DNA of 64,000 nt, taken from contig JBEKOG010000028.1 of the NCBI GenBank assembly GCA_049522015.1, positions 323 to 64,322 on the forward strand, written 5' to 3'. Each line of letters begins with the position of its first letter. The first letter of the stretch is position 1. Origin of the DNA: Verrucomicrobiota bacterium. GTDB taxonomy: Bacteria > Verrucomicrobiota > Verrucomicrobiia > Limisphaerales > UBA11358. The position numbers and the translations under genes are program-made. Shown here in pieces: positions 21,154-63,979 of the stretch. The notes below the pieces were generated by a model, which was not told where the DNA came from, made no database searches, and was given only the letters and a program-made list of their open reading frames with translations.

Positions 21154-21267
21154 CCTGGGAGCGCCGGCGTCCACCCCCCGCAGTGCTGCTACGGAGGACG
21201 GGTCTCGCCGGCAAATGGACAAGTCCGCCGCAGTGGTACGAGCCGGCGGGACGCCGGCGCTCCCAGG
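21154..21267. repeat. 114-nt palindromic element with perfect 19-bp terminal arms
   Basis: cctgggagcgccggcgtcc (21154-21172) is the exact reverse complement of ggacgccggcgctcccagg (21249-21267). A related 123-nt copy lies inside acnA (61431-61553). Confidence 0.85.
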
Positions 21268-36724: not shown

Positions 36725-37216
36725 ATGAACATTACCGTCGCCAACCGTCAGCACGTGCGAAAAATCAACCTGCGGCTGCTGAAAAAAATTGCGAACGCGC
36801 TACTGGCGGAACTGGAGATTGAAAAGGCCGAAATTGGAATCTGCCTCGTCGGCGCGCCGGAAATGACGCGACTCAACGAGACTTTTCTCCGGCATGCCGG
36901 TTCAACGGACGTGATTACGTTTGATTACCGTGACAGCGTGTTGCCGGCATCTTGCCGGCAAATCAAATCAGAACTTCCGGCAGGATGCCGGAAGCACGTT
37001 CACGGCGAGATTTTCATCTGCGTGGACGAGGCGGTTTTGCAGGCGCGGAAGTTTGACACGAGCTGGCAGTCGGAAATCGTCTGCTACATCATCCACGGAG
37101 TTTTGCATTTGGTCGGCTTTGATGATTCGAGTGCGGGTGCCCGGCGCAAAATGAAACGGGAGGAAAACCGCCGGTTGCGTGAAATCACCCGCCGCTTTCC
37201 CTTGAGCAAACTTTGA
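36725..37216 (+). CDS. ybeY: rRNA maturation endoribonuclease YbeY, with an in-frame 66-nt palindromic insertion
   Basis: Zinc motif HGVLHLVGFDD. phoH-ybeY synteny. Confidence 0.92.
   Translation: MNITVANRQHVRKINLRLLKKIANALLAELEIEKAEIGICLVGAPEMTRLNETFLRHAGSTDVITFDYRDSVLPASCRQIKSELPAGCRKHVHGEIFICVDEAVLQARKFDTSWQSEIVCYIIHGVLHLVGFDDSSAGARRKMKREENRRLREITRRFPLSKL
36935..37000. repeat. 66-nt palindromic element (26+14+26), copy inside ybeY
   Basis: agcgtgttgccggcatcttgccggca / aatcaaatcagaac / ttccggcaggatgccggaagcacgtt. A second copy lies at 52123-52188 in proS. Confidence 0.85.
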
Positions 37217-51012: not shown

Positions 51013-51075
51013 GTAGCCGCCGACGTCAGTCGGCGCAAAATAATGAAGACAGCGCAGACCAACGTCAGTGGCTAC
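51013..51075. repeat. 63-nt GTAGCC-type palindromic REP-like element between convergent genes
   Basis: gtagccgccgacgtcagtcggcg (51013-51035) pairs with the reverse complement of cagaccaacgtcagtggctac (51055-51075). Confidence 0.7.
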
Positions 51076-51082
51076 AATTGGC

Positions 51083-52912
51083 TCAGCGCAAACTTGCCTG
51101 GCCTTCTTCCAGCAGTTTCACCACCGCTTCTACTGCCACATCGGCCTTGACGGGTTGCAGCGCGCCGCCGCGCGGTTTGAGTTCCACTTCGCCCTTCGCT
51201 AATGATTTTTCACCAATGCCGATGCGAATTGGAAAGCCGACCAGTTCGGAATCCTTGAATTTCACGCCGGGACGTTCGTCGCGGTCGTCCAGAATCACTT
51301 CCACGCCGCGCGCCGTGAGTTCCGCGTAAATTTTCTCCGCCAGTTTCATCACCGCGCCGTCCGGCGCGACTCCCAGCGGCGTGATGCAAACCTGATACGG
51401 CGCGACACTTAACGGCCAGATGATGCCGTCCTTGTCGTTGCACTGCTCGATGACGGCCTGCAACGTGCGGGTGACGCCGATGCCGTAGCAGCCCATGACG
51501 GCGGGTTTGCGGGTGCCAGCCTCGTCGAGGAAGGTCGCGCCGAGCTTCTCGCTGTATTTCGTGCCGAGCTTGAAAACGTGGCCGACTTCAATCGCCCGCC
51601 GGATTTTTAACGGTTTGTTGCATTTCGCGCAGGGTTCACCGGCGGTCACAGTCCGCAAATCGAACCACTGTGTTACCTTGATGTCGCGTTCGATGGAGAC
51701 GTTGCGGAAATGGAAACCGTCTTCGTTCGCGCCGGTGGTCATGCCGTTCGCGCCGTGCAGACGTTCATCGGCGAAAATCCTCGGAGCGCCGGCCTCCGGC
51801 ACGGCGCGTTGCAGCGGTTCACCTTCAAGCCGTGCCGGAGGCCGGCGCTCCAATGTGCTTGCCACCGCGCCCAAGCTTCCCGGATGCGCGCCGAGCGTGG
51901 CCACACATTCTTCCGGCGTGGCCGGACGGAACACCGTGGTGCCGATGATGCCCGCGAGCTTGGCTTCGTTCAACTGGTCGTCGCCGCGTATCAAGATGAT
52001 GACCGGTTTGCTGTCAGCCATGTAAACCAGCGTCTTGATCTGACGATTGGCCGGAACGTTGTAGGGCGCTTTGCTCAGCGCTTCGATGGTGACAACGCCG
52101 GGCGTGGCGAACTTTTCAATGGAACGTGCTGCCGGCGTCCCGCCGGCAGTTCCAGTTTGTTCTTCCGGCAAGATGCCGGAAGCACGTTGAGAAACCGCGC
52201 TTGTCGCCTTCTCGATGTTCGCGGCGTAACCGCAGGCTTCGCAATATACCACCTCGTTCTCGCCGGTTTCCGCCGGGACCATGAACTCGTGCGAAAATTT
52301 CCCGCCGATGACGCCGGTGTCGGCCTCAACCGGAAACGCCTTCAGCCCGCACCGGGCAAAGATGCGCCCATAGGCGTCGTACATTTTCTGGTAGCACGCC
52401 TGCGCCGCCTCGTCGCTCACGTCAAAACTGTAGGCGTCCTTCATGATGAACTCGCGGGCGCGCATCAGCCCGAAGCGCGGACGGATTTCGTCCCGGAACT
52501 TCACGCTGATCTGGTAAAAGTTCTTCGGCAACTGCCGGTAGGAATTGATCTCGGCGGCGGCGGTGGTGGTGATGACTTCCTCGGCCGTCGGGCTGAGAAT
52601 CCATTCGCGGTTTCCACTGTCCTTCAATTTGAACAACACGTTACCGGCGGTTTCGTAACGGCCGCTCTGCTGCCAGATTTCCGGCGGCTGAAGCGCGGGC
52701 ATGAGCAGTTCGAGCGCACCGGCGCGGTCCATTTCCTCGCGGACGATTTGCTCGACCTTGCGCAGCGCGCGCAAACCGAGCGGTAGAAAGGTATAGACGC
52801 CCCCGGCGAGCTTGCGGATGAGGCCGGCACGGAGCAGGAGTTTATGGGAAAGAATTTCCGCGTCAGCCGGAGCTTCGCGGAGTGTAGGAATAAATGCGTT
52901 GGTCCACTTCAT
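51083..52912 (-). CDS. proS: Proline--tRNA ligase (bacterial type with editing domain), carrying two in-frame palindromic insertions
   Basis: MKWTNAFIPTLREAPADAEILSHKLLLRAGLIRKL, class II motifs (FRDEIRPRFGLMRAREF, GCYGIGVTR), and a C-terminal anticodon-binding domain. Confidence 0.95.
   Translation of the reverse strand: MKWTNAFIPTLREAPADAEILSHKLLLRAGLIRKLAGGVYTFLPLGLRALRKVEQIVREEMDRAGALELLMPALQPPEIWQQSGRYETAGNVLFKLKDSGNREWILSPTAEEVITTTAAAEINSYRQLPKNFYQISVKFRDEIRPRFGLMRAREFIMKDAYSFDVSDEAAQACYQKMYDAYGRIFARCGLKAFPVEADTGVIGGKFSHEFMVPAETGENEVVYCEACGYAANIEKATSAVSQRASGILPEEQTGTAGGTPAARSIEKFATPGVVTIEALSKAPYNVPANRQIKTLVYMADSKPVIILIRGDDQLNEAKLAGIIGTTVFRPATPEECVATLGAHPGSLGAVASTLERRPPARLEGEPLQRAVPEAGAPRIFADERLHGANGMTTGANEDGFHFRNVSIERDIKVTQWFDLRTVTAGEPCAKCNKPLKIRRAIEVGHVFKLGTKYSEKLGATFLDEAGTRKPAVMGCYGIGVTRTLQAVIEQCNDKDGIIWPLSVAPYQVCITPLGVAPDGAVMKLAEKIYAELTARGVEVILDDRDERPGVKFKDSELVGFPIRIGIGEKSLAKGEVELKPRGGALQPVKADVAVEAVVKLLEEGQASLR
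51783..51851. repeat. 69-nt palindromic element (23+23+23), copy inside proS
   Basis: ggagcgccggcctccggcacggc / gcgttgcagcggttcaccttcaa / gccgtgccggaggccggcgctcc. The arms are perfect reverse complements. Confidence 0.9.
52123..52188. repeat. 66-nt palindromic element, copy inside proS
   Basis: aacgtgctgccggcgtcccgccggca / gttccagtttgttc / ttccggcaagatgccggaagcacgtt. Same family as 36935-37000. Confidence 0.85.
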
Positions 52913-52974: not shown

Positions 52975-53087
52975 GCTCCTCGGCAGAGCGCCGCAAACTT
53001 TGGTTCAAGATGGCGGCTTTCTGCCGAAAGCCGCTACGGTCTCAATTCACCGGGAACGGCGTTCTGCCGAGACGTCGCTACGTTCTC
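52975..53087. repeat. Cluster of three REP-like units (GTAGC-hairpin type) upstream of proS
   Basis: cggcagagcgccgc; ggcggctttctgccgaaagccgctacggtctc; ggcgttctgccgagacgtcgctacgttctc. The last unit recurs at 55698-55727. Confidence 0.75.
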
Positions 53088-58096: not shown

Positions 58097-60664
58097 ATGA
58101 GTGACACCACTTTTTCAACCAGAATTTCGGCGATGAAAATTCCGTCGCTGCCGCCCGGGGTCACGCTCACCACGCTCGAAAACGGGCTGGTCATCATCGT
58201 GCGCGAAGATCACAGCGCGCCGGTCGTGTCAGCGCAGGCGTGGTGCATGGCGGGCAGCATTCACGAAGGCAAATGGCTCGGCGCCGGCCTGTCGCACGTG
58301 CTCGAACACATGCTGTTCAAGGGCACAATCACCCGTCCCGGCAGCCGCATTGACCAGGAAGTGCAGGAAGCCGGCGGCTACATGAACGCCTACACAAGCT
58401 TCGACCGCACGGTGTATCACATTGACGTGCCGGCCACCGGCACGCGCACGGCGATTGATGTCCTGTGCGACATCATGCAGCACGCCACCCTGCCCGACGA
58501 TGAACTGGCCAGGGAACTCGACGTCATCCGCCGCGAAATGGACATGGGCCAGGACGATCCCGGGCGCCGCGCCAGCCGCCGCCTGTTTGAAACCGCCTAC
58601 ACGCGCAGTCCGTATCGCTTCACCGTCATCGGGTACCCCGACATTTTCGGCGAGTTGAAACCCGACGACATCCGCGGTTACTACGCCGAAAAATACGCGC
58701 CGAACAATGTGTTTTACGTCGTCGCCGGCGACGTCAAGAAAGACGAAGTCATCGCGCAAATCCGCACCGCCTACGAAAAAACCAAAGCCCGGGCGCTCCC
58801 ATCAGTCGTGTTGCCAGAAGAACCGAAACAGACCGCGGCGCGTGAAATCGTCGAGGAAGCGCCCATTGAACTTGGTCATTTTCATTTTGCCTGGCACATT
58901 CCCGAAGTGCGGCATCCCGACATGCCGGCGCTCGACGTGCTCGCCGTTTTGCTGGGGTGCGGCCGCAGTTCGCGCCTCTACCAGCAGGTCCGCGAGAAGA
59001 AGGGCGTTGTGCACCACGTTGACGCGTGGACTTACAGCCCCGGCAATCCGGGTTTGTTCGGCATGAGCGCCATCGTGGACGCGGACAAATTTACCGTTGC
59101 GCGTGATGCGATGCTGGCCGAGGTTGAAAAAATGAAGACGTCGCCGGTTACCGCCGGTGAACTTGGCAAAGCGGTGAAACAATTCATTGCCGCCACGCTT
59201 GCCGCGCGCAAGACGATGGAAGGCCAGGCGCAAAACCTCGGCGGAAACTGGCTGGCGGCAAATGATTTGAATTTTTCCGAACGTTACCTCGCCGCCGTCA
59301 AGCGCGTCAGGCCCGATGACATCCTGCGCGTCGCGCGTGAATATCTCACGGCGGAAAACCGCACCCTTTACACGTTGTTGCCCAATGGCACCGCGCCCAA
59401 AGTGTCCGTGGCCGTCGAAGAAAAAACCGAGCACGCGATCCAGAAATTTGAATTGCCGAACGGCCTCCGCCTGCTCGTGAAGGAAGATCATCGCCTGCCC
59501 TTTGTTGAATATCGCGCCATGTTCCAGGGCGGCGTGCTCGCCGAAACCAGGGAAAACAACGGCATCAGCCAGTTGACCAGCCGGATGCTGCTCAAAGGCA
59601 CGTCGCAGCGCAGCGCCCGGGACATTGCGACAGAAATCGAGACCGTCGGCGGCAGCATAGACAGCTACGGCGGCAATAACAGCTTCGGCGTTAATCTGGA
59701 AACCATGAGCAGCGATTTTGCGACCGGCCTCGATTTGCTCGCCGACGTTTTGCTGAACCCGGTTTTTCCCGCCGACGCGCTCGAACGCGAGCGCGAGGTG
59801 CAGATTGCCGACATTTGTGCAGACAAGGACAATCTGCTTAAAAGCGCCAGCCTGGCCATGCGACGCACGCTTTTTGGCAACATCGGCTACGGCTTGGATT
59901 CAACCGGCATGGAAGAAACCGTTGCCAAACTTAAGGTTGCCAGTTTGAAATCGTTTCACAAAAAGCTGGCCACGCCGAACAATTGCGTTCTCGCCATTTA
60001 CGGCGACGTGGATGCGGCGGAGGTTAAATCCGCCGTCGAAACAGTTTTTGGCGGATGGAAATCCAGCGGAAAATTTGAACATCCAACATCCAACATCCAA
60101 CATCCAACATCCAATCGAGTAACGGAGATCCGCGACAAAAAGCAGGCGGTGGTCGTCATCGGTTTTCCCGGCACGACGATGCACGACGAAGACCGTTACG
60201 CGCTCGAGATGATTCAAGAATCGTGCAGCGACCTCGGTTCGCGGCTGTTTCTGCGGATTCGCGAGCAACTCGGCCTCGCCTACTACGTCGGCGCGCAACA
60301 TTTCGCCGGACTGGTGCCCGGCTACTTCGCCTTTTATGCCGGCACCGAGCCGTCGAAGGCCGCGCAGGTCGAACAGGAAATTCTCAAGGAAGCCGGACTC
60401 CTGCGCACCGAAGGCCTGACCGCCGAGGAACTCAAACGCGCCAAGGCCAAACTCATCGGCCAGAAAAAGATCGCGCGGCAGGACCTGGGTCATCTGGCCT
60501 CCACGACCACGCTCGATGAACTTTACGGCCTCGGCTACCGGCGTGCGGAACTCGACGACGCGAAATACGAGGCCGTGACGCTGGAACAAATCAAAGCCGC
60601 CGCGCAAAAATATCTCAAGCCGGATAAACTGGTCGTCGCGGTGGTGAAGCCGGAGAAAATTTAA
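58097..60664 (+). CDS. Two-module M16 (pitrilysin/insulinase) family zinc peptidase
   Basis: HxxEH motif (HVLEHMLFKGT) in the first module. The second, inactive-type M16 module starts around residue 440. Confidence 0.92.
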   Translation: MSDTTFSTRISAMKIPSLPPGVTLTTLENGLVIIVREDHSAPVVSAQAWCMAGSIHEGKWLGAGLSHVLEHMLFKGTITRPGSRIDQEVQEAGGYMNAYTSFDRTVYHIDVPATGTRTAIDVLCDIMQHATLPDDELARELDVIRREMDMGQDDPGRRASRRLFETAYTRSPYRFTVIGYPDIFGELKPDDIRGYYAEKYAPNNVFYVVAGDVKKDEVIAQIRTAYEKTKARALPSVVLPEEPKQTAAREIVEEAPIELGHFHFAWHIPEVRHPDMPALDVLAVLLGCGRSSRLYQQVREKKGVVHHVDAWTYSPGNPGLFGMSAIVDADKFTVARDAMLAEVEKMKTSPVTAGELGKAVKQFIAATLAARKTMEGQAQNLGGNWLAANDLNFSERYLAAVKRVRPDDILRVAREYLTAENRTLYTLLPNGTAPKVSVAVEEKTEHAIQKFELPNGLRLLVKEDHRLPFVEYRAMFQGGVLAETRENNGISQLTSRMLLKGTSQRSARDIATEIETVGGSIDSYGGNNSFGVNLETMSSDFATGLDLLADVLLNPVFPADALEREREVQIADICADKDNLLKSASLAMRRTLFGNIGYGLDSTGMEETVAKLKVASLKSFHKKLATPNNCVLAIYGDVDAAEVKSAVETVFGGWKSSGKFEHPTSNIQHPTSNRVTEIRDKKQAVVVIGFPGTTMHDEDRYALEMIQESCSDLGSRLFLRIREQLGLAYYVGAQHFAGLVPGYFAFYAGTEPSKAAQVEQEILKEAGLLRTEGLTAEELKRAKAKLIGQKKIARQDLGHLASTTTLDELYGLGYRRAELDDAKYEAVTLEQIKAAAQKYLKPDKLVVAVVKPEKI
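60078..60114 (+). repeat. Heptanucleotide tandem repeat (ACATCCA)x5 inside the M16 peptidase gene
   Basis: gaacatccaacatccaacatccaacatccaacatccaat, translated as EHPTSNIQHPTSN. Confidence 0.9.
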
Positions 60665-60666
60665 TT

Positions 60667-60735
60667 GGAGCGCCGGCCTCCGGCACGGCTCTTCCTGTTG
60701 TTTCATTGTCGCGCTGTGCTGGAAGCCGGCGTTCC
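60667..60735. repeat. 69-nt palindromic element, intergenic copy 1
   Basis: ggagcgccggcctccggcacggc / 23-nt loop / gctgtgctggaagccggcgttcc. The arm differences are transitions. Confidence 0.85.
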
Positions 60736-60909
60736 AGCTGGAATCAAATAACCGCTGGAACTCATCTCGAAATCTTGCGCTGCTGAATGACCACACCTCC
60801 GATATTCGGCTGAGTTTTGCTTTGATCGGGTTGTTTTCAATATAACGAACCGCCTTCCTTTCCTGCTCTTCGTCCCGCATGAATGTATCCCAGTATTCCC
60901 GCTGCCATT
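60736..60909 (-). pseudogene. C-terminal remnant of an IS200/IS605-type Y1 transposase (RAYT-like)
   Basis: The minus-strand frame reads LQWQREYWDTFMRDEEQERKAVRYIENNPIKAKLSRISEVWSFSSARF. This matches the conserved C-terminal pattern of REP-associated tyrosine transposases (WQ.RYYDH.IRDE...YI..NPVKAGL....WPWSS). No N-terminal HUH/Tyr core is present, and an in-frame stop lies just upstream inside the adjacent repeat. Confidence 0.65.
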
Positions 60910-60976
60910 GGAGCGCCGGCCTCCGGCACGGCTTGTTTCAGCTATAACATCGGGCCGTGCCGGAGGCCGGCGTTCC
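60910..60976. repeat. 67-nt copy of the 69-nt palindromic family, intergenic copy 2
   Basis: ggagcgccggcctccggcacggc / ttgtttcagctataacatcgg / gccgtgccggaggccggcgttcc. Confidence 0.85.
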
Positions 60977-60979
60977 GAT

Positions 60980-63979
60980 TTATGCCTTTGCCACCAACTG
61001 CCGCAGGACGTACGGCAAAATGCCGCCGTGCTGGTAGTAATCGATTTCAATCGGCGTATCAATCCGGCAACGCACTGGCACATCTTCCACGCCGCCGTCT
61101 TTGCGCGTGATCTTCAGCGTGAGGTCCTGCTGCGGCTTGAGGTTCGCATCGAGGCCGACGATGTCGTAGGTCTCCGTGCCATCGAGCTGGAGGCTCTGCG
61201 CCGTCGTGCCTTCCTTGAATTGCAGCGGCAGCACGCCCATGCCGACAAGGTTGCTGCGGTGGATGCGTTCGAAGCTCTGCGCCACGACGGCTTTCACGCC
61301 GAGCAGGTTCGTGCCTTTCGCGGCCCAGTCACGGGATGACCCGGTGCCGTATTCCTGGCCGGCAATCACCACCAGCGGAACGCCGGCCGCCCGATATTTC
61401 ATGGCGGCGTCGTAAATGGACATTTGTTCTCCTGGGAGCGCGGGCGTCCCGCCTGCGGCAGTCGGCGTCGCGCCGGCTGCACTCGTTGAACTGACTGACG
61501 AAGCGGAAGGCGAGACGCCTTCCGCAGCACGCGAGGACGCGTGCGCTCCCAAAAACCTGGTCACTCCGCCTTCGACACCAGGCACCATGAGATTTTTGAT
61601 GCGGACGTTGGCGAACGTGCCGCGGGTCATCACGCGGTCATTGCCTCGCCGCGAGCCGTAGCTGTTGAAGTCGGCGGGCTGAACGCCGTTCTCAATGAGA
61701 TATTTTCCGGCCAGCGAGGTCTTCTGGATGGATCCGGCGGGTGAAATGTGGTCGGTCGTCACGCTGTCACCAAAAATGGCCAGCGTCCGCGCACCCTTGA
61801 TTTCGGCGATGCCGCCGGGTTGCATGGAGAAGTTCGCGAAGAACGGCGGTTCCTGTATGTAAGTGGACCTGCGTTCCCATACGAAAACATTGCCGGTGAA
61901 CGAGGGGATTTCGTTCCACTTGGGATTCTGCGCCGCAAAATCCTTGAACAGCCTGCGATAAACTTCCGGCTGCAACGCGGTTTGCATGAGGTCGCGGATT
62001 TCCTGCAGGCTGGGCCAGAGTTCGCGCAAATAAACCGGCCGGCCATGCTTGCCCATGCCAATCGGATCGCGGCTGAGGTCAATGTCCACGCGGCCCGCGA
62101 GCGCGAAGGCGACGACGAGTGGTGGCGACATGAGGAAGTTCGCCTTGATGCTCTGATGCACGCGCGCCTCGAAGTTGCGGTTGCCCGAAAGGACGGAGGC
62201 CGCGACCAGGTCGTATTTGCTGATCGCGTCTTCGACCGTGGCCGGCAGGGGGCCGGAGTTGCCGATGCATGTCGTGCAGCCGTAACCCACGAGGTTGAAG
62301 CCAAGCTGGTCGAGATACAATTGCAGGCCGGTCCGGTCCAGGTAATCGCTCACCACGCGCGAGCCGGGCGCGAGCGACGTCTTGACGACGGGATTCACGC
62401 TGAGTCCGTGTTCCACGGCCTTCTTCGCCAGCAAACCGGCGGCGAGCATGACGCTGGGATTCGATGTGTTCGTGCAACTGGTGATGGCCGCGATGAGCAC
62501 GCTGCCGTGGCGAATTTCGGACTGCACCCCGCGAAACGTCGTGGGAGGCACCTGCTCCGAGGTGTGGGGCGCGGGGTGCTGGTCGCGCATCTCGGATTCG
62601 CTGGGTTCCACGCCCAGCTTGCGATGGCCATAGCTGTGATTGATGGGCGGATGGGCCTCGCGCGCCGTGTTGACCCGCGCGGTTACATACAACTCCTCGT
62701 AACGCTTGCCGAAGCCATTGTCCATGACCGAACGCGTCATCGCCTTCATGAACGCGTCTCTCAACTTCGGCAGTTCGATGCGGTCCTGCGGGCGCTTTGG
62801 GCCGGCCACACTCGGCACCACCGTGCCAAGGTTGAGTTCCAATTCCTGCGAGTAGGCGATGTCGCCCTTCTTCGGAATGCCGAACAAGCCCTGCGCGCGG
62901 TAATAATTTTCGTAGGTCAGGCAAAGCTCCTCGCTGCGGCCCGTGGCGCGGAGATAATTCACGCACTCGGCATCAATCGGGAAGAAACCCATCGTCGCGC
63001 CGTATTCGGGCGCCATGTTCGCTATCGTCGCGCGGTCCACGACCGGCAACGCCGCCGCGCCGGGGCCGAAAAATTCGACGAACTTGCCGACGACCTTTGC
63101 CTTGCGGAGCATTTCCGTGACGGTGAGCGCGAGGTCGGTGGCGGTGACGCCGTCGCGCAACACGCCGGTGAGATGCACGCCGACGACGTCCGGCGTGAGG
63201 AAATAAACCGGCTGGCCCAGCATGCCGGCTTCAGCCTCGATACCGCCGACACCCCACCCCACGATGCCGAGACCATTGATCATTGTCGTGTGCGAATCCG
63301 TGCCGACCAGCGTGTCGGGATAGTAAAGTGGAACGCCGGCCTCCGGCACGGCGCGTTGAGCGTCTTCACCATCTTGCCGTGCTGGAAGCCGGCGCTCCGA
63401 AAGCACGCCTTGGGCAAGATATTCCAGGTTGACCTGATGGACGATGCCGATGCCGGGCGGCACGACCTTGAACGTGTCGAACGCCTGCATGCCCCACTTG
63501 AGAAACTGGTAGCGCTCGCGATTGCGCCGGAATTCCATCTCCAGATTTTTCTGCAACGCATCCGCGCTGCCGGCAAAATCCACCTGCACCGAATGGTCCA
63601 CCACGAGGTCCACCGGCACGAGCGGTTCGATGATTTTCGGATTTTTGCCCAGTCGCTGAACCGCGGAGCGCATCGCCGCCAGGTCCACCAGCAGCGGCAC
63701 GCCGGTAAAATCCTGCAATACGATGCGCGCAACGATAAATGGAATTTCCTCCGTGCGGGTTTCGGTTGGCTTCCAATTCGCCAGCGCGCGCACGCTTTGT
63801 TCGCCGACCTTTTTGCCGTCGCAATTGCGGAGCACGGATTCGAGCACGAGCCGGATGGAGACGGGCAATTGGGAAACCGGCCCGACCCCGGCCTCTTCCA
63901 GCGCCGGCAGGGAATAAAACGATCCCTGCCGGCCGTCGCCGAGGTCAAATTTCTGGAGCGTGTTGAATAAGTTGTGCAT
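60980..63979 (-). CDS. acnA: Aconitate hydratase A (AcnA/IRP type), carrying two in-frame palindromic insertions
   Basis: 999 aa. [31 protein letters not shown] (Fe-S ligands), and the C-terminal swivel domain [14 protein letters not shown]...[10 protein letters not shown]. Confidence 0.96.
61431..61553. repeat. 123-nt palindromic element inside acnA (same family as 21154-21267)
   Basis: cctgggagcgcgggcgtcc (61431-61449) versus ggacgcgtgcgctcccaaa (61535-61553). Encodes [41 protein letters not shown] between VTRFL and QMSIYDAAM. Confidence 0.8.
63330..63398. repeat. 69-nt palindromic element, copy inside acnA
   Basis: ggaacgccggcctccggcacggc / gcgttgagcgtcttcaccatctt / gccgtgctggaagccggcgctcc. 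Encodes [23 protein letters not shown]. Confidence 0.9.

Follow-up and report, generated by a model that had tools for sequence, protein, structure and literature searches.

Two palindromes within a Limisphaerales proS gene are very probably doublets of two families of repetitive extragenic palindromes

A close comparison for the elements described here is found within the same phylum: the verrucomicrobium Opitutus terrae has the highest number of GTAG repetitive extragenic palindromes (REPs), and REPs lying inside its genes have been described (Di Nocera, De Gregorio and Rocco 2013, PMC3733652). Intragenic GTAG REP dimers encode 20-30 amino acids, often in repair helicases and, in other species, in tRNA synthetases; GTAG REPs are associated with genes for REP-associated tyrosine transposases (RAYTs), several families may share one genome, and the only tag variants listed are GYAG, GYRG, GTRG, GTMG and GTGG (PMC3733652). 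In Pseudomonas and Enterobacteria each population of REPINs (REP doublets forming hairpins) has one cognate RAYT flanked by its REPs; these REPINs are dispersed, mostly inherited vertically, free of target duplications and extragenic by definition (Bertels and Rainey 2011, PMC3116915; PMC3337134). The RPE-1 palindromic elements of Rickettsia are longer, at about 100-150 bp or 30-50 residues, and have no transposase assigned (Ogata et al. 2000, as summarised in PMC3733652, PMC10969869). Here we analyse two palindromes in the prolyl-tRNA synthetase (ProRS) gene proS of a Verrucomicrobiota bacterium (Limisphaerales, UBA11358). The gene lies on a stretch of 64,000 nt, referred to below as the window (assembly GCA_049522015.1, contig JBEKOG010000028.1, positions 323 to 64,322).

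Both palindromes are very probably REP doublets, i.e. REPIN-like, non-autonomous elements, that belong to two REP families of this Limisphaerales genome and sit in tolerant loops of proS. Each element consists of two inverted units around a spacer of 12-26 nt, and each unit of a 5-nt tag and a GC-rich hairpin of 7-9 bp. The pair of inverted units with a short spacer by which a REP doublet is recognised is present in both families, as are the dimensions of a REP unit (stem of 6-9 bp, loop of 3-5 nt). The intergenic REPs of the window that carry the tag GTAGC have the same layout of tag, 7-9 bp stem and 3-4 nt loop, and the tags of the two families, GGAGC in family 1 and CGTGC in family 2, occupy the same position as GTAGC in these classical REPs. 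It is on the basis of this shared layout that we regard both palindromes as REP doublets. The initial annotation, made from the letters of the sequence, had correctly seen that the two elements differ in family; it had not named them as REP or RAYT elements, and the element type is supplied by the present analysis.

The GTAG REP dimers of O. terrae resemble these elements in host phylum, in the combination of a tag with a 6-9 bp stem and a short loop, and in forming inverted dimers that are coding inside genes. The present elements differ from them in their tags, GGAGC and CGTGC, and in being intragenic far more often (about 44% of sampled doublets). In addition, some of the RAYT genes contain an in-frame doublet and others are inserted in frame into priA, and different families re-use a single codon position. 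With the REPIN-RAYT systems there is likeness in the use of two inverted REPs as one hairpin-shaped unit, in the presence of a cognate, flanked RAYT and in the lack of target duplication. Unlike the REPINs of Pseudomonas and Enterobacteria, neither family is confined to extragenic positions, nearly half of the copies being found in coding sequence and open in frame, and the sequence families and tags are unrelated. As with RPE, palindromic selfish repeats are found in frame in many unrelated, functional protein genes, which in Rickettsia are housekeeping genes, with a preferred reading frame and with function kept. The likeness to RPE is an analogy only, set apart by size and host phylum: RPE belong to an obligate intracellular alphaproteobacterium, whereas here the elements are REP pairs of 62-75 bp with candidate RAYTs in free-living Verrucomicrobiota of peat and soil. 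Intragenic REP elements are thus a known phenomenon that is unusually frequent here; the repeated re-use of one site and the RAYT genes in frame in priA are new.

The host gene is an intact open reading frame (ORF) of 609 codons with the Pfam domains tRNA-synt_2b, tRNA_edit and HGTP_anticodon, in the bacterial-type ProRS architecture of a class II core, a tRNA_edit domain between motifs 2 and 3, and an HGTP anticodon domain. The closest solved structure is the ProRS of Pseudomonas aeruginosa (8w8j/5ucm, E = 1.7e-154). Both elements lie inside this ORF and between the class II catalytic motifs, 271 nt apart, much as the initial annotation had placed them (two families about 270 nt apart, in the region of the INS editing domain). 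Site 1 corresponds to residues ~355-377, within the tRNA_edit (INS) domain (residues 270-405), and starts five residues past the GSLGA loop; site 2 corresponds to residues ~242-264, in the linker between the catalytic core and INS, just before the editing domain. The peptides that had been read from the inserts agree with the ORF translation. Alignment with the solved P. aeruginosa structures, which had been put forward as a check, shows that neither 8w8j nor 5ucm contains either segment, and the segments are likewise missing from Limisphaerales orthologues at 73-80% identity; they are not conserved ProRS sequence. The gene is intact and under purifying selection, with a ratio of nonsynonymous to synonymous substitution rates (dN/dS) of about 0.1 (0.06-0.13 outside the inserts, against seven orthologues). 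One proS locus was found in each of the 80 best genomes, so that the suggested case of a pseudogene with a second intact copy does not apply, and the same two inserts are present in independent assemblies from JGI, NCBI and ENA (P0001-P0005, L110 and L296; numbers with P and L refer to proteins and loci of the comparison). Taken together, the intact ORF, the low dN/dS, the single locus and the recurrence in independent assemblies make a pseudogene or an artefact very unlikely. An intein, an intron and a programmed frameshift were also considered for the inserts and rejected: no such domains are present, the lengths are multiples of three, there are no stops, and no slippery site lies upstream.

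Palindrome 1 is, as initially annotated, a perfect palindrome of 69 nt (23 codons), with 23-nt arms that are 100% complementary and a spacer of 23 nt. The family-1 arm is made up of the tag GGAGC and a 7-bp hairpin of its own, GCCGGCC-tcc-GGC(a)CGGC, and this intra-arm stem is retained in subfamily arms of the form GCCGAGC-acca-GCTCGGC. The arm has seven matches in the window at up to three mismatches, and none in 100 shuffles. The RNA fold predicted for the 109 nt around the palindrome has an energy of -73.2 kcal/mol (z = -6.96). Palindrome 2, initially described as a single 66-nt palindrome, is a real element that consists of two different perfect 9-bp hairpins, CTGCCGGCG-tcc-CGCCGGCAG (52129-52149) and CTTCCGGCA-aga-TGCCGGAAG (52162-52182), its 27-nt arms agreeing at 22 of 27 positions. 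The first REP unit (52125-52149) reads CGTGC followed by TGCCGGCG-tcc-CGCCGGCA, and the second (52162-52186) is the inverted unit, in which the 52162-52182 hairpin is followed by GCACG. The outer ends are complementary (AACGTGC/GCACGTT), and the span that had been annotated (52123-52188) is the 62-nt doublet plus two complementary bases at each end. Family-2 stems have the general form T[GT]CCGGC/GCCGG[CA]A with the tag CGTGC. The minimum-energy fold of palindrome 2 is one of two local hairpins and contains no single long stem (-49.3 kcal/mol, z = -4.56).

In the 64 kb of the window, family 1 is present in four copies and family 2 in two (Table 1). Among the matches listed, the exact family-1 arm was found in more than 109 stretches and the family-2 unit in more than 105, nearly all of them from metagenome-assembled genomes (MAGs) of Limisphaerales or other Verrucomicrobiota from peat, bog and soil, with several matches per MAG. 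The comparative data are MAGs throughout, some with wrong taxon labels, and the copy numbers per genome are lower bounds. Limisphaerales-type genes and repeats were seen, for example, on L025, L029, L042, L059, L062, L070, L122, L133, L136 and others, which are labelled Bifidobacteriaceae, Acidobacteria, Methylomirabilota, Akkermansia muciniphila etc.; L025, L029, L042 and similar loci are probably mis-binned or mislabelled MAGs. Across 71 family-1 copies, target-site duplications of 2-5 nt are at chance level, and there is a preference for A-T-Y immediately before the tag. The lack of target-site duplication and the A-T-Y preference fit single-strand transposition of the IS200/RAYT type and not DDE-type miniature inverted-repeat transposable elements, which we rejected because of the chance level of duplications and because the linked transposases are Y1_Tnp proteins.

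Table 1. Positions of proS, REP elements and the RAYT remnant in the window
Feature	Position	Strand or reading	Basis and remarks
proS, bacterial-type prolyl-tRNA synthetase with INS editing domain	51083..52912	-	intact 609-aa ORF, Pfam, PDB matches, dN/dS; hosts both elements
Family-1 REP doublet (REPIN-like), 69 nt	51783..51851	proS read on - strand	arm 51783-51805, spacer 51806-51828, inverted arm 51829-51851
Family-2 REP doublet, 62 nt	~52125..52186	read on - strand as QRASGILPEEQTGTAGGTPAAR	sequence, hairpin scan, fold
GTAGC-tagged REP doublet (GTAGCCGCCGACgtcaGTCGGCGC ... GCGCAGACCAACGTCAGTGGCTAC), classical extragenic position	51013..51075		directly 3' of proS stop; hairpin 51018-51035
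Two GTAGC-tagged REP hairpins, 5' region of proS	53013..53081 (53013-53037, 53058-81)	-	hairpin 53013-53034
Family-2 doublet in frame in ybeY (36725-37216, +)	36937..36998		arm matches, Pfam, hairpin scan
Family-1 doublet, intergenic, 3' flank of RAYT remnant	60667..60735		arm matches
3' remnant of family-1 RAYT (Y1/HUH transposase) gene, WQREYWDTF...FDSS	60736..60909	-	tblastn, reading frame; HUH-containing half missing
Family-1 doublet, 67 nt, counterpart of in-frame copy inside related intact RAYT genes	60910..60976		arm matches
Family-1 doublet in frame in aconitase gene (60980-63979, -)	63330..63398		arm matches, Pfam; same frame as in proS

The intragenic habit of both families is not peculiar to proS. 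Copies were classified as coding or non-coding by the codon-usage log-odds of both flanks, trained on long ORFs of the fetched loci, a procedure that recovers the proS frame in every window of 300 nt. A simpler criterion, which took the longest ORF across the copy and required 200 codons or more, was discarded as too lenient, as it scored the intergenic copy at 60667 as coding. The codon-usage classifier assigns an in-frame coding position to 31 of the 71 complete doublets of family 1 and to 32 of the 72 doublets of family 2 (~44% of sampled copies in each case). Pfam domains were found in the insert-bearing ORF for all ten family-1 hosts checked (UvrD/AddA-like helicase, Mfd, HrpB, GH20, CstA, MetH, MnmE, RecQ, radical SAM and Aldedh). 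The reading frames of family 1 are biased, the right arm being mostly read as AVPEAGAP and the left arm as ERRPPAR or GAPASGT, less often SAGLRHG. For family 2 the prevailing reading is QRA[SA]GILP. Such a bias is consistent with a filter against frames rich in Cys and Arg. In the YbeY endoribonuclease gene of the window, the frame in which the family-2 doublet is read (VLPASCRQIKSELPAGCRKH) differs from that in proS.

Comparison of 120 close proteins and 80 orthologous loci shows that the internal length variation of close ProRS is confined to sites 1 and 2. In the orthologues at 73-80% identity, site 1 consists of the short loop VVNVPADVKVY, and the linker SGIPKTAAREIGAA is conserved at site 2. 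The family-2 doublet of the window does not cleanly interrupt the gene at site 2, as had been supposed, but is part of 78 nt that stand in place of a conserved linker of 39 nt, SGIPKTAAREVGAA. In the close clade (>85-97% identical outside the sites), site 1 is occupied by GGAGC doublets of several subfamilies (ERRPPAR..PEAGAP, ERRAPAR..PVLGAP, ERRSPTR..SETGAP), by a GTGGC doublet (KGGTGFQPVNPEHRLEACATLA), by GTAGC or GTAGG doublets (KSSAGVSPAPDRRDACPTLQ, CRSSEAAQQRGPTFS) or by short sequences (KSRDIS, NMAATKGEIK). One short allele, VAATVKSRDIS, has the REP architecture GTAGC TGCGACT atga AGTCGCA in L125, with only loosely similar hairpins elsewhere in ~2 Mb. Residues encoded by the spacer differ freely among orthologues (LEGEPLQR, QEGQTPQH, HENQPLQQ, PEGQTTPP). 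The alternatives to the family-2 doublet at site 2 are 7-nt tandem repeats read as KSEIRNPKSEI, TSNIQHPTSNIQ or QKSEVRSQKSEV, with arrays of AAATCCG, ACATCCA or CAGAAGT in place of the proS linker in L111, L112, L187 and L179. Alleles of the two sites are found in all combinations, and the proS DNA is a mosaic in which 60-nt blocks of 100% identity stand beside blocks of 82-88% (window compared with L294-L297, L110 and L111), a sign of frequent homologous recombination among these populations. A different kind of insert is seen at site 1 in P0038, P0049, P0086, P0108, L126, L134, L147, L149 and L153, where non-palindromic, AT-richer segments of 25-35 amino acids such as NFPPKYERFAVVPADFKVKETYLQIRSHNGWDDCK look like a structured helical addition that is not derived from REPs.

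A similar exchange of elements is seen at the aconitase site (63330-63398), which holds a GGAGC doublet in the window, a GTAGC heterodimer in L299, a segment resembling 7-nt repeats in L307 and nothing in distant relatives, in a comparison of few sequences (three close orthologues, the rest mostly from distant genomes). The aconitase of the window is 999 amino acids long, against ~900 in relatives, and has two in-frame repeat elements; the one at 61435-61555 is a compound element of ~120 nt with the ends GGGAGCGC...GCGCTCCC and four hairpins. A third family is represented by an intergenic element of 114 nt (21154-21267) with perfect 19-nt terminal inverted repeats, CCTGGGAGCGCCGGCGTCC...GGACGCCGGCGCTCCCAGG, its ends being related to those of the aconitase compound element. 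In the ORF at 58097-60664 (+), the 7-nt sequence ACATCCA is repeated five times in tandem within the coding sequence (60078-60113) and read as HPTSNIQHPTSN; the same 7-mers form inverted pairs elsewhere (e.g. L014, L018), and this looks like another type of palindromic element.

Both families can be linked to RAYT genes. A tblastn search with E. coli RayT gave matches in five family-1 loci and at 60734-60907 of the window (E = 0.006), between two family-1 doublets, and this segment is 71% identical to the RAYT of L090 (tblastn E = 8e-22). The window thus contains a truncated REP-RAYT unit (60667-60976), in which the 3' third of a RAYT gene is enclosed by two family-1 doublets and adjoins the stop codon of aconitase; deletion between doublets probably removed the HUH half. 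Family-1 RAYT-like ORFs with the HUH motif NHVHVLV and the tyrosine motif YIxxNP were found in L084 (4999-5799, -), L035 (3358-4248, +), L090 (6304-7257, -) and L056 (4748-5701, -). Pfam recognises Y1_Tnp in L035 and L090 at 24-29 bits (gathering cut-off 23), and L084 and L056 were assigned by tblastn similarity. Family-1 doublets flank these ORFs, and in L084, L090 and L056 they are clearly present on both sides; each of the genes also carries an extra doublet in frame between the HUH and Tyr motifs (e.g. ...FIATLAEVILT-ERRSPTRLEDEIPLRNTPCQRPAL-QWQREYWD). A second RAYT, 38% identical to the first, has family-2 REPs on both sides in L240 and on one side in L256. Cognate RAYTs of both families are therefore found in related genomes, and the window itself has the remnant. 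A third RAYT-like gene was observed in L085 (4834-5470; E. coli RayT tblastn E = 2e-7, with no Pfam match at E 0.01), flanked by inverted GGAGGGGCGAGTTCCACGAGCCCC units, which brings the REP-RAYT pairs of the sampled Limisphaerales genomes to three or more.

The family-2 RAYT has itself an intragenic location. In L240 (502-3165, -) the RAYT and its bounding REPs are inserted in frame into priA, immediately ahead of the Walker A motif, and L256 (44-2473, -) has the same in-frame RAYT in priA with a bounding REP on one side; Pfam finds Y1_Tnp, DEAD, Zn_ribbon_PriA, Helicase_C and PriA_C in one ORF. About 20 protein clusters of Verrucomicrobiae and Kiritimatiellota (proteins P0121-P0144) share the combination of PriA 3'BD, Y1_Tnp and helicase. 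The HUH and YIxxNP motifs are nearly invariant in nine aligned RAYT-bearing PriA sequences, the RAYT of Kiritimatiellota PriA is at a different place, and the PriA protein P0142 has a bare family-2 doublet where others have REP-RAYT-REP. The gene priA is not in the window. Our literature search found no paper that names RAYT together with the primosome, which is absence of evidence only.

We propose that a family-specific RAYT copies the doublets in trans. As HUH/Y1 single-strand DNA transposases of the IS200 type, RAYTs would recognise the tag and hairpin in single-stranded DNA and would not duplicate the target. Copies that are in frame, free of stops and located in tolerant surface loops would not inactivate the host gene, and because the gene stays active such copies would persist. 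The tolerant places in proS would be the linker before INS and the loop just after GSLGA inside INS. The inserts would presumably be translated as loops of ~22-26 residues rich in Pro, Gly, Ala, Arg and Glu, and may be neutral for ProRS function; the mRNA hairpin would be a by-product which the ribosome must melt. The balance of the data favours recent copying, or conversion from another copy, as the source of the perfect arms of the 69-nt copy, over selection on the mRNA hairpin.

Several observations weigh against this identification and mechanism. The canonical GTAG/CGTC tag is absent from both palindromes, which have GGAGC and CGTGC instead. There is no intact RAYT in the window, and the movement of REP doublets by RAYTs is suggested, here as in the literature, by their association; the translation of the inserts is likewise predicted from sequence. 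The AlphaFold2 model of the 609-aa ProRS, built with 55 close homologues, is too poor for the placement of loops (mean predicted local distance difference test score 43.5, predicted template modelling score 0.30). In-frame copies have slightly fewer arm mismatches than non-coding copies (1.48 against 2.31), which is weakly compatible with some hairpin selection. Finally, in proS and again in aconitase, one and the same codon position is occupied by different REP families. Random insertion combined with tolerance does not predict such re-use of a codon position, and an added targeting or exchange step is possible: either very few loops are tolerant, or a site once occupied draws in more REPs by integration or conversion.

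Selection at the RNA level, by which the hairpins would be kept because ribosome pausing aids the folding of the editing domain or because they tune the stability of proS mRNA, would account for the very stable predicted folds (-73 and -49 kcal/mol, z of -7.0 and -4.6), for the position of one hairpin element at a domain boundary and for the slightly lower number of arm mismatches in in-frame copies, yet we consider it improbable. The initial annotation had offered recent insertion or structural selection as the reason for the perfect arms, and covariation among copies as the way to decide. Paired changes are indeed present: in 12 orthologous 69-nt copies, inter-arm pairing is 93% and six pairs are changed on both sides (24 cells), a score reached by 0 of 500 shuffles. 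Intra-arm covariation is weak, at 84.5% paired, with only two pairs showing double changes and no clear separation from shuffle and slide controls. However, the double changes sort into 3-4 arm types, each of which also occurs at unrelated loci, and the window and L295 share identical flanks and outer arm ends but have different inner arms and spacers. This pattern points to an exchange of dispersed REP subfamilies, by new insertion or conversion, and not to stepwise compensation. The arms of orthologous copies range from perfect to 3-5 mismatches, several being decayed; ProRS that are >94% identical elsewhere have no hairpin at the sites (KSRDIS or NMAATKGEIK at one, the ancestral linker or 7-nt repeats at the other); and the same elements are found both between genes and within many genes unrelated to proS. 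Of the two explanations first offered, recent insertion or copying thus fits better than structural selection, in view of the decayed arms, the dispersed subfamilies and the sister lineages that lack the hairpin.

It is slightly less probable still that the inserted peptides are adaptive modules with an effect on the handling of tRNA(Pro), on editing specificity or on the binding of partners. Site 1 does lie only five residues from the GSLGA loop of the editing domain, and the frames are biased to AVPEAGAP and QRA[SA]GILP, but the same peptides are found in helicases, MetH, CstA, aconitase, YbeY and other proteins, near-identical ProRS have interchangeable alleles, short ones included, and the spacer-encoded residues are unconstrained; the frame bias is more simply seen as avoidance of Cys/Arg-rich frames. 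A local origin of the palindromes, by template switching or hairpin-primed duplication in replication and without mobility, appears very unlikely given that identical arms are shared by more than 100 unrelated loci across many genomes and that both families are linked to RAYT genes, even though fold-back synthesis can yield perfect palindromes and no clean empty ancestor was found for site 1, where the nearest short allele differs by more than the element. We give least credence of all to an assembly artefact (chimeric joins) or a dying proS that is backed by another copy. The source DNA is metagenome-assembled and our search was blind to a second ProRS of the archaeal/eukaryote type, but the inserts recur in the independent JGI, NCBI and ENA assemblies, in an intact three-domain ORF that is constrained and present as one locus in each of the 80 best genomes.

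The identification of the palindromes as REP doublets in tolerant loops may be extended, tentatively and with considerable doubt, to a more general picture. The REP doublets and RAYTs of this clade might have adopted an intragenic life with re-use of sites, in which an occupied loop becomes a docking place where families and 7-nt arrays replace one another by REP-targeted integration or conversion, giving short hypervariable cassettes in essential genes such as proS and aconitase. The RAYTs might have done likewise, and the family-2 RAYT, as a conserved in-frame domain of the replication-restart helicase PriA, could be delivered to single-stranded DNA at replication forks.

The impact of these findings is modest, in that two odd palindromes in an essential gene are explained as selfish REP pairs in tolerant loops. 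For annotation they carry a warning, as such segments in Verrucomicrobiota proteins are repeat-derived and not conserved protein sequence. To our knowledge, the movement of REPINs by RAYTs has never been directly shown. The findings carry more weight as a starting point: with about half of its copies intragenic, one codon held by different families in near-identical genes and a RAYT inside PriA, this lineage amounts to a set of natural experiments on target search and processing by RAYTs, and its inserts chart the loops that tolerate insertion in ProRS, aconitase, helicases and other proteins.

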